Positions 5,653 to 16,708 of a stretch of DNA of 64,000 nt are shown one piece after another (position 1 is the first letter of the stretch; each line of letters opens with the position of its first letter). The notes under the pieces were generated by a model that searched no databases, was not told where the DNA came from, and was given only the letters and a program-made list of their open reading frames with translations. The DNA comes from Candidatus Aenigmatarchaeota archaeon (GTDB lineage: Archaea > Aenigmatarchaeota > Aenigmatarchaeia > QMZP01 > QMZT01). The stretch is from the NCBI GenBank assembly GCA_026397315.1, contig JAPLVC010000003.1, positions 41,258 through 105,257 of the forward strand, in the 5' to 3' direction. The position numbers and the translations under genes are program-made.

Positions 5653-5812
5653 GCTGGGATGGCCGAGCTAGGTTCAAGGCGATGGACTCGAATGGATATC
5701 ATGAGGCGAATGCCTGTGATTGCGCGACATCCATTGGGCTTCTGCCCGCGCAGGTTCAAAAGCGAAAGACGCAGATTGCATCTGCGTCCGCTTGAAACTC
5801 CTGCTCCCAGCG
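5653..5812 (+). tRNA. tRNA-Ser(CGA) with two introns (37/38 at 5693-5728; 59/60 at 5761-5798)
   Basis: GCTGGGA/TCCCAGC acceptor, ATGGA/TCCAT anticodon stem, long variable arm, G73; BHB-like motifs, e.g. TTCA/TGAA in the T-loop. Confidence 0.9.
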
Positions 5813-5818
5813 CTAACC

Positions 5819-5890
5819 GGGCTGGTGGTCTAGTGGCATGACGTCGCCTTCACACGGCGAAGATCAAGGGTTCAATTCCCTTCCGGCCCA
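5819..5890 (+). tRNA. tRNA-Val(CAC)
   Basis: Cloverleaf with TCGCC-TTCACAC-GGCGA anticodon arm. Confidence 0.96.
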
Positions 5891-5935: not shown

Positions 5936-6008
5936 GGGTCCATGGTCTAGTGGCTATGACGTCTGCTTGACGTGCAGAAGATCGCTGGTTCGAGTCCGGC
6001 TGGACCCA
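5936..6008 (+). tRNA. tRNA-Val(GAC)
   Basis: Cloverleaf with TCTGC-TTGACGT-GCAGA anticodon arm; TTATAAA upstream. Confidence 0.96.
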
Positions 6009-6094: not shown

Positions 6095-6227
6095 GCCCCG
6101 GTAGTCTAGTGGCCAAGGATACCGGCCTTTCGGGTGCTTTTCGAAGTCTCGAAAGGTAAGAGCTCCGCAGCGAGCGATGACTTCACGAAGAAAGCCGGTG
6201 ACCCGGGTTCAAATCCCGGCCGGGGCA
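6095..6227 (+). tRNA. tRNA-Glu(TTC) with 60-nt 37/38 intron (6133-6192)
   Basis: GCCCCGG/CCGGGGC acceptor, CCGGC-CTTTCG^A-GCCGG, BHB central helix CTTT/GAAG. Confidence 0.92.
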
Positions 6228-7289: not shown

Positions 7290-7329
7290 GCAAAAAATGG
7301 CGCCATATAAAAAATCACTCGAAACAATC

Positions 7330-7486
7330 GCGGGGGTACCCAAGCGGTCAAAGGGGCTAGAATACCTAAGTTCGCTTCGACTGGTATGGCCAAGTTTAGG
7401 TATGGCTAAGTTCAGGCATTGGCTGCAAGGCCGTTGAAATGCCTAGTGCTTTAGTAGCTTCCAGGGTTCGAATCCCTGCTCCCGCA
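7330..7486 (+). tRNA. tRNA-Leu with introns at 30/31 and 37/38; anticodon CAG (exon 7410-7416) or possibly TAG (exon 7394-7400)
   Basis: GCGGGGG/CTCCCGC acceptor, CTAGG/CCTAG anticodon stem after splicing, Leu-type variable arm, CAGGG-TTCGAAT-CCCTG, A73; BHB motifs at both junctions. Confidence 0.9.
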
Positions 7487-7550
7487 TAACTTTTTCTTTT
7501 GTTGTCCGGTCTTTTCCAGATTTATTAATAAACCGGGACATAATCTAAAT

Positions 7551-14991: not shown

Positions 14992-16581
14992 TCATGGACT
15001 ATAGTTTATGAAAGCTTCGTAGAACTTCTTCATAAACATCTTGGCTGTGATGAGCCTGTATTCGACTTGTTCTCCGAACAGATACTGACTCAACATGGCG
15101 TTTGTGATAACCCAAAGATTGTATAATAGCGTTGAAAACATGAAGTAAAAGCAGCGTATCTTGTGATTTTTTGACGTGGTGTTCGGTCGGAACTCATGTT
15201 TTTTGACTCTGTATCCAGTTTCTATGTTCCATCTTTTTCCGTAAAGCCTGAACAGATTGGCGGTATATAACATCAGAGTCGGAAGGTTCGTGATAAAGGC
15301 TACGTCCTTTCCTTCATGATCTCTCTTTACGACCAGCTTCGTTCTGGCTAAATATTTATCGTCGTTGCTTCTCAATTTCATTTCAACGACAGCCGGTGGC
15401 GAACTTCTTTTCATGATTCTTAAAACTCTTTTCGTCTTAACGCCTGGCATCAGATATTTGATTCCCATTTCGTCGAACAGGCTGATGAACTTCGCGGAAT
15501 AGAAACCCCTGTCGACATAGAAATATCTCGCGTCAACCTTGTTTTTCGCGTATTCTATAAGCGTTTTTACGGCTTCCCTTTCGTTAGTGAAAACGCCTAC
15601 GGGCAGAGCCAACAGAGTAAAGTCTCCGTATTTTTCGGCTATCTTGATTGTGACGAACCTGAATCTTTTGCAAGTTCCGAGCTTGTATTCTCCGCCCACG
15701 ACCATCTTATCGGTCTTGTCTCCGTAATACAGCCAATCGTGATAGTCTATCGCCAAGTCCACGGGACCGCTTAACAATCCTCTTGCTTTGGCAATCTTGT
15801 ATATCCTCTCGAAAGCAGCCATGAACATTTCTTTAATCTCTTCAGATTCGAGCTTGGCGAGGTATCCAAGCATGGTTCTCGCATGCGGAACGTTGTCCTT
15901 GAACTCTTTCTCGTCTCTCATGAGCTGGTAGCCTTGATTCGCGAACGTATTGTTGTAAGCGACATAAGCCAGCAGGTCGAGTAAGTTATCTTTGCAATAT
16001 CTCGCCTTGCAGTTCAGGGGAAGCGCAAGCGTAGGGAAAATCTCTTCCCTGAGCAGCCTGATTACTTTGGTTCCTTCCTTGTCTACATGTCTTTTGATAG
16101 TTTTCTCGCACTTCTTGCCAAGATTTTTATCTTCCGCGAAGTCGATGTCGAGCAATTTTCCCTCTTCCTTTGCGATTTCCCTTATCCGTTTCGCCATGAA
16201 GTCGATTATCGATTCGATTTCATCGTCTATTCTTTCGTTCACCATGACGCTGAAGCTTTGCTGACAAGGAAGCGTTCCGTCCTTGTAGCCGAGCAGCTTG
16301 GCTTCTTCCGGTCTTCTTTTCAGATGAGAAATCAGCGAACCGAACGATTTTATGTCTTTTAGCTCTTTGTAAAGAATCGATTTTATTATGGTGAAAGGGT
16401 CATACCTGAGCCTTCGGTCGCCGACCCATGTCTTGTATTTGGTGAGCAGAAGCTTCTCAAGTGAATACAATTCAACCTTAGAGAGAAGAGCCGCTATCGT
16501 GCTTTCTTCTGGTTTAAGCTCCGAAAAAGCTTTTTTAATCTTCAATTCCAAGTCATTACATGTGGTAGGTGTTGTCTGCAT
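14992..16581 (-). CDS. DDE transposase, ISH3 (IS4-like) family, with long N-terminal extension
   Basis: AIDYHDWLYYG, YVDRGFYS, YGKRWNIETGYR motifs. Confidence 0.92.
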   Translation of the reverse strand: MQTTPTTCNDLELKIKKAFSELKPEESTIAALLSKVELYSLEKLLLTKYKTWVGDRRLRYDPFTIIKSILYKELKDIKSFGSLISHLKRRPEEAKLLGYKDGTLPCQQSFSVMVNERIDDEIESIIDFMAKRIREIAKEEGKLLDIDFAEDKNLGKKCEKTIKRHVDKEGTKVIRLLREEIFPTLALPLNCKARYCKDNLLDLLAYVAYNNTFANQGYQLMRDEKEFKDNVPHARTMLGYLAKLESEEIKEMFMAAFERIYKIAKARGLLSGPVDLAIDYHDWLYYGDKTDKMVVGGEYKLGTCKRFRFVTIKIAEKYGDFTLLALPVGVFTNEREAVKTLIEYAKNKVDARYFYVDRGFYSAKFISLFDEMGIKYLMPGVKTKRVLRIMKRSSPPAVVEMKLRSNDDKYLARTKLVVKRDHEGKDVAFITNLPTLMLYTANLFRLYGKRWNIETGYRVKKHEFRPNTTSKNHKIRCFYFMFSTLLYNLWVITNAMLSQYLFGEQVEYRLITAKMFMKKFYEAFINYSP

Positions 16582-16636
16582 GGCTTCACTTCCACCCAAA
16601 GGGTTAGGGGTCCAATCCAGACCCTTTGGATATTGA

Positions 16637-16708
16637 TGCGGCAGGCGGGAATCGAACCCGCATCACCCAGTTGGGAACACCGGTGGGTTGCCGTTACCCC
16701 ACTGCCGC
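16637..16708 (-). tRNA. tRNA-Gly(TCC)-like element with atypical anticodon loop (G32, C37)
   Basis: GCGGCAG/CTGCCGC, GGGT/ACCC, CCGGT-GTTCCCA-ACTGG, GCGGG-TTCGATT-CCCGC, A73; 72 nt. Confidence 0.7.

Follow-up and report, generated by a model that had tools for sequence, protein, structure and literature searches.

Two mutually exclusive anticodon mini-exons in an archaeal tRNA-Leu gene: very probable alternative cis-splicing to tRNA-Leu(UAG) and tRNA-Leu(CAG)

Structure of the tRNA-Leu gene

A tRNA-Leu gene with introns at tRNA positions 30/31 and 37/38 occupies positions 7330-7486 (157 nt, + strand) of the window, the 64,000-nucleotide stretch of DNA analysed here. Upstream lies a TATA-like element that may be an archaeal promoter (7306-7313), and downstream a T-rich tract that may be a terminator (7491-7500), both on the + strand and both read from the sequence; a sigma-70 promoter scan was set aside because its model does not apply to archaea. 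The constitutive exon 1 (7330-7360) covers positions 1-30 and ends with G30, and the constitutive last exon (7441-7486) covers positions 38-73, with a Leu-type variable arm and a discriminator A. Between them is a 16-nt tandem duplication (7383-7398 and 7399-7414, 14/16 identical) and, separated by a 9-nt spacer (7401-7409), two candidate 7-nt exons for positions 31-37, GTTTAGG (7394-7400) and GTTCAGG (7410-7416), which differ only at the wobble base and carry the leucine anticodons UAG and CAG. This organization, with a BHB-like motif at both junctions of each path, had been proposed in an earlier note on this DNA, and its coordinates were all borne out on recheck.

Two forms of the 30/31 intron are predicted: a proximal (UAG) form of 33 nt (7361-7393), indicated by the conservation of its flanking pairs, and a distal (CAG) form of 49 nt (7361-7409), indicated by pairing conservation and folding energies, which would remove the UAG exon. 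The 37/38 intron would measure 40 nt (7401-7440) on the UAG path and 24 nt (7417-7440) on the CAG path. At 30/31, a common central-helix strand within exon 1, GGCT (7355-7358), pairs with GGCC (7388-7391) on the UAG path and with GGCT (7404-7407) on the CAG path, with bulges of 3 nt and a flanking helix of 5 bp on the UAG path (ATACC 7362-7366 with GGTAT 7383-7387) or up to 10 bp on the CAG path. At 37/38, TTTA (UAG) or TTCA (CAG) pairs with the single acceptor TGAA (7435-7438), with a flanking helix that is complete (6/6) for UAG and requires a bulge for CAG. The spacer serves twice, as part of the flanking helix of the UAG 37/38 BHB and as acceptor strand and bulge of the CAG 30/31 BHB.

All four junctions in the source genome show 4/4 central-helix pairs (G-U allowed), and the 4-bp central helix with 3-nt bulges that characterizes BHB introns is found at each junction. 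In-silico joining with either mini-exon gave a complete 84-nt tRNA-Leu, called tag or cag by ARAGORN, and both products fold into the canonical cloverleaf expected after intron removal. The gene departs from the usual BHB-intron tRNA in the rule of one anticodon per gene, as it holds two conserved anticodon exons. Standard tools did not recognize it unspliced: ARAGORN made no call without introns and mis-called it Thr with introns allowed, and Rfam missed it.

Leucine tRNA inventory and splicing endonuclease of the source genome

The source genome is that of a small DPANN archaeon, a 1.05-Mb MAG (7 contigs, 91% complete) in which many tRNA genes have introns at non-canonical sites. The top Atlas cluster for a protein of the window places it probably in Aenigmatarchaeota. 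Its four Leu genes are the dual gene, TAA, CAA and AAG, and no separate Leu TAG or CAG gene was recovered by searches anchored on the 5' end or on the T arm, or by Rfam. Because other tRNAs are also unrecovered from this MAG (e.g., Tyr, Trp, and Pro TGG), the missing TAG and CAG genes weigh little in a single genome, and our argument therefore rests on comparison with relatives. By eye, no further dual-anticodon gene was found among the tRNAs recovered in this incomplete set.

CUG is about six-fold more frequent than CUA in the source genome (25.7 versus 4.1 per 1000 codons), an excess that fits a bias towards CAG and is no test of it. By wobble, a UAG anticodon could read CUG as well, and a Leu AAG tRNA, if deaminated, could read CUA; codon coverage is compatible with a single product and does not force both UAG and CAG. 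The A34 (AAG) tRNA-Leu gene lies at G000:C3:50143-50282 (- strand), and no GAG gene was found in that genome; Leu AAG without GAG is common in the order, and some genomes of family f5 have GAG. A leucine tRNA with A34 also occurs in ARMAN-4 and -5 (PMC3239211).

The only EndA-domain gene in the genome, on contig C1 (L151:1189-2376, - strand), encodes a 395-aa protein that matches the ARMAN-2 epsilon2 enzyme 4FZ2 end to end (E=4.6e-104) and keeps the Tyr-Lys of the ARMAN-specific loop (ASL), with Y160/K161 corresponding to Y159/K160. [quoted passage not shown]

Several other tRNA genes of this genome are also unusual. A cluster in the window is headed by tRNA-Ser(CGA) (5653-5812, + strand), which has introns at 37/38 and in the T loop and was missed by ARAGORN and Rfam, and continues with Val(CAC) (5819-5890), Val(GAC) (5936-6008) and Glu(TTC) (6095-6227), the last with an intron and mis-called Stop by ARAGORN. 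Elsewhere, a tRNA gene that is probably Phe (G000:C3:149496-149620, + strand) has, by eye, an apparent intron in the acceptor stem (~4/5) and a second in the anticodon stem, and a tRNA-Ile(TAT) with an intron (G000:C2:82939-83068, + strand) stands in place of the usual modified CAT Ile2, resembling ARMAN lineages. A 535-aa ORF (14992-16599, - strand) that by eye looks like an IS4/IS5-type transposase adjoins tRNA-Gly(TCC) (16637-16708).

Conservation of the cassette in the family

The double cassette (23 nt, with a spacer that is always 9 nt) is present in 21 of 23 family genomes from nine genera; the twenty-second (G007) has a dual gene in another layout, and neither dual layout was found in the twenty-third (77% complete). 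The earlier note had asked whether relatives retain both exons and had held that an unconserved UAG copy or an independent Leu(TAG) gene would count against two products. Both exons are invariant in all 21 family genes, without a single substitution in the UAG copy, and neither a Leu(TAG) gene nor a stand-alone Leu(CAG) gene was found in the source genome or the 22 dual-gene family genomes, counts that come from incomplete MAGs of related, non-independent genomes. The family's remaining Leu genes carry TAA, CAA or AAG; fifth "Leu" matches in five family genomes proved not to be tRNAs. The exact 34-nt cassette also occurs in 16 separate JGI metagenome contigs, which argues that it is not an assembly artefact.

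Around the mini-exons, 12 of 21 intron columns vary across the family, and the dual gene has D-loop, variable-arm and T-loop introns in some of its genomes and lacks them in others. Dual genes such as L016, L024, L026 and L012 contain extra introns, sited in the D loop, the variable arm, the T loop or at 21/22. With these additional introns, family dual genes exceed the three introns stated as the maximum (PMC3239211).

The splice helices of both paths are maintained within this variable background. The flanking pairs of the proximal (UAG) 30/31 junction are complete (5/5) in 18 of the 21 family genes and 4/5 in the remaining 3, with compensatory variants of the helix (ATGCC/GGCAT and GTATC/GATAT), and those of the distal (CAG) junction are 5/5 in 21/21, with covariation in the CAG-path helix (GTGCC/GGCAC). 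In 16/21 genes, the spacer that follows the UAG exon forms 4/4 pairs with the strand preceding the 37/38 acceptor, against a background of 3% of the other windows of the same introns. In the other five, the 37/38 acceptor has an A opposite base 34, which perfects the UAG helix there and mismatches CAG, and the CAG path of these same genes has a 3-5 bp flanking helix instead. Judged from these alignments of non-independent kin, the splice signals of both paths are conserved as under selection, and pairing of the UAG exon in the CAG-path helix could be a further source of that exon's conservation.

Distribution of dual genes across the order and class

Going beyond the content of the earlier note, the arrangement was found to be widespread in the class and to occur in several layouts. 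Dual UAG/CAG genes are present in ~72 of 371 class genomes, comprising 40 of the 91 genomes of the order and ~32 genomes from 11 families of other orders. When the other-order matches were fetched, 18 of 19 were whole tRNA genes; the dual match in G284 was not a tRNA, and a loose pattern scan of all genomes, which returned mostly chance matches, was discarded. In layout A, as in the source genome, two mini-exons follow the 30/31 intron. In layout B (G007, G025, G052, G058, G060, G333, G338, G258, and G023, the last with a 30/31 intron in addition), an exon 1-37 with UAG is followed by a second copy of positions 22-37 with CAG, reached through a 21/22 intron, and in layout C (G028, G031, G046, G329, and others) an exon 1-37 with UAG is followed by a 31-37 CAG copy reached through a 30/31 intron. 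All three layouts are predicted to lead to the same result, UAG and CAG from one gene. UAG precedes CAG in every dual gene, and a CAG-before-UAG pattern with a stricter tail gave no match in the 371 genomes. Genes from other orders with C at tRNA base 25 have RGCG as the strand preceding the CAG exon (9/9 such genes fetched), and G092 shows the matching change ahead of both exons.

A lack of stand-alone genes in dual-gene genomes was set as a prediction before the census, which used a pattern that detects TAG and CAG genes without a 37/38 intron. This pattern matched 102 genomes, of which ~94 were real by eye. It overlapped with dual genes in just two genomes, G023 and G346, where the apparent stand-alone matches are protein-coding DNA, so that no real stand-alone TAG or CAG gene was found by this pattern in the ~72 dual-gene genomes, compared with ~94 other genomes that have one. 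Families f3, f5, f7, f11, f27 and f31 contain both states. Given kinship and genome incompleteness, we treat this complementarity as a strong pattern to which no P-value is attached; the hypergeometric values computed in the analysis take no account of kinship and do not serve as probabilities here. Since the dual gene replaces two separate genes in ~70 relatives, one gene very probably makes two tRNAs.

Folding of the precursor and a model of mutually exclusive splicing

The two first-step conformers at 30/31, proximal and distal, were compared by constrained folding. They lie 0.3 kcal/mol apart in the source genome and differ by -0.5 to +5.6 kcal/mol across the family, with the distal fold favored by 3.4-5.6 kcal/mol in 11/21 family genes; the conformers come close in energy where the distal strand has T in place of C. 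During transcription, the proximal hairpin is completed 16 nt ahead of the distal one. The earlier note had cautioned that the longer CAG-path helix may dominate, a concern that is weakened for the source genome by the small energy difference and the earlier UAG hairpin.

These observations suggest a mechanism in which one precursor would yield two leucine isoacceptors through mutually exclusive exon use, and in which the choice of 3' splice site at 30/31 very likely commits the precursor to UAG or CAG. Exon-1 bases 25-28 could pair with either of two acceptor strands, so that EndA would cut either the proximal or the distal BHB: the proximal cut would release the 33-nt intron and join the UAG exon, and the distal cut would release the 49-nt intron, discard the UAG exon and join the CAG exon. 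After this first ligation, bases 32-35 of the 37/38 BHB would come from the chosen exon; the one acceptor strand of this BHB would fit both exons because its G pairs with U34 or C34, and on the UAG path the second intron would carry the CAG exon away. As skipping both exons would leave no BHB and keeping both would leave no valid anticodon arm, the geometry itself would enforce a choice of one of two. Should an intermediate keep both exons, a further cut at 30/31 could yet turn it into CAG, the scheme on which layout C is built. Cutting at 37/38 after ligation at 30/31 would match multi-intron tRNAs, whose nested introns are removed in order (PMC3978253). The UAG/CAG ratio is probably set by folding, with the proximal hairpin forming first and the distal helix equal or more stable. 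Cutting, step order and product ratio are what we infer from DNA-level evidence.

One product or two

Wobble rules would allow either tRNA to be made alone, and either case would leave a conserved unused exon, its splice helices and the absent separate gene to explain. Of the two, production of tRNA-Leu(CAG) alone is the less improbable, though unlikely; the UAG copy would be kept as a strand of the 30/31 intron helix, and CUA would be read by the AAG (inosine) tRNA. The UAG exon does pair in an 8-10 bp distal helix in most family genes, and a structural role of this kind agrees with the distal preference (>3 kcal/mol) in 11 of the 21; yet compensated variation, as seen in the neighboring spacer, would be expected of a structural strand, and the UAG exon is constant even in genomes with a changed partner strand (G008, G011, G016, and G020). 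If only CAG were produced, neither the proximal acceptor nor the UAG 37/38 flanking helix would have a use, yet both are conserved, and exon 1 runs directly into the UAG exon in two other layouts. The six-fold excess of CUG and the presence of Leu(AAG) would suit CAG alone, but stand-alone TAG genes are the commonest in the class and are absent from dual-gene genomes.

Still less likely is that only tRNA-Leu(UAG) is made, reading CUA and CUG by wobble, with the CAG copy a leftover in the 37/38 intron. The invariance of the CAG exon beside a freely varying next base, the covariation of its own acceptor strand with tRNA base 25 across orders, and a distal helix unbroken in 21/21 genes all argue against this, despite the earlier formation of the proximal hairpin, the C.A mismatch with the acceptor on the CAG path in several genes, and the many class genomes that show just a stand-alone TAG gene. 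That two neighboring genes collapsed in assembly, or that a tandem duplication arose by chance within an intron, is barely credible: stand-alone TAG and CAG genes often share a contig in relatives (24 pairs), but the cassette occurs in 21 genomes, in one of them on a 1.1-Mb contig, as well as in the JGI contigs, and the copies have differing flanking introns and predicted working splice helices between the repeats.

The gene is therefore best regarded as real and conserved and, on the comparative evidence, very probably alternatively spliced. It is highly likely that this DPANN lineage uses true cis alternative splicing of mutually exclusive micro-exons to form tRNA-Leu(UAG) and tRNA-Leu(CAG), with competing folds setting the ratio and the dual gene replacing two separate genes across many families.

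Comparison with known systems

The closest counterpart is the tri-split tRNA-Gly of Caldivirga maquilingensis (Fujishima et al. 2009), in which one of two anticodon-loop transcripts is reported to be joined to a 5' quarter and a 3' half that are constant (PMC4390854, PMC4033280). Both systems combine constant parts with one of two anticodon pieces by BHB splicing to give synonymous isoacceptors, whereas the Caldivirga pieces are separate transcripts joined in trans by leader pairing and the dual gene would rely on competition in cis within 157 nt, with the unused exon thrown away inside an intron. The separate transcripts with complementary leaders that define split and tri-split tRNAs are not seen here, where the pieces are colinear on one strand within 157 nt; synonymous anticodon pieces with common constant parts, which also define them, are present at the DNA level. 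The split tRNA-Glu of Nanoarchaeum equitans has one 3' half common to two 5' halves with synonymous anticodons (PMC4033280) and resembles the layout in G007, G023, G025 and G333, but it depends on trans-splicing of separate genes rather than alternative cis-splicing. The multiple-intron tRNAs of Thermoproteales and ARMAN-2, with nested BHB introns, likewise combine non-canonical (30/31) and canonical (37/38) sites with removal in order and an EndA of broad specificity (PMC3978253, PMC3239211). Those genes have one anticodon and one product, whereas two acceptor and two donor sites would compete in the dual gene.

Spliceosomal mutually exclusive exons are likewise tandemly duplicated and chosen by competing RNA pairings. 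The dual gene is similar in this logic and differs in its machinery (EndA and ligase), its tRNA substrate, its 7-nt exons and its prokaryotic setting. No cis case of alternative tRNA splicing was found in the mostly open-access literature searched, and in the dual gene known BHB chemistry takes a cis form that is new. If true, this would mean that a prokaryotic tRNA is alternatively spliced in cis through mutually exclusive exons; it would give tRNA introns a positive role, the supply of two decoders by a single gene, bear on the long-standing puzzle of the persistence of introns in archaeal tRNAs, and provide a cis counterpart of, and possible intermediate to, tri-split tRNAs. Standard annotation would then miscount the tRNA sets of such archaea. 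At 157 nt, the system is small enough for in vitro testing with purified epsilon2 EndA.

Origin of the dual gene

We infer that the dual gene arose by collapse of a linked TAG/CAG gene pair or by internal duplication. Linked stand-alone TAG and CAG genes, found in 24 genomes, suggest collapse of a pair, and the 16-nt repeat of layout A suggests slippage. The idea that linked pairs are always TAG-first was refuted, as 19 are TAG-first and 5 CAG-first, and gene order consequently favors a fusion origin only weakly. Tandem pairs of stand-alone Leu TAG and CAG genes are seen in relatives at L023, L312, L333 and L345, and such tandem pairs are a possible precursor state of the dual gene.
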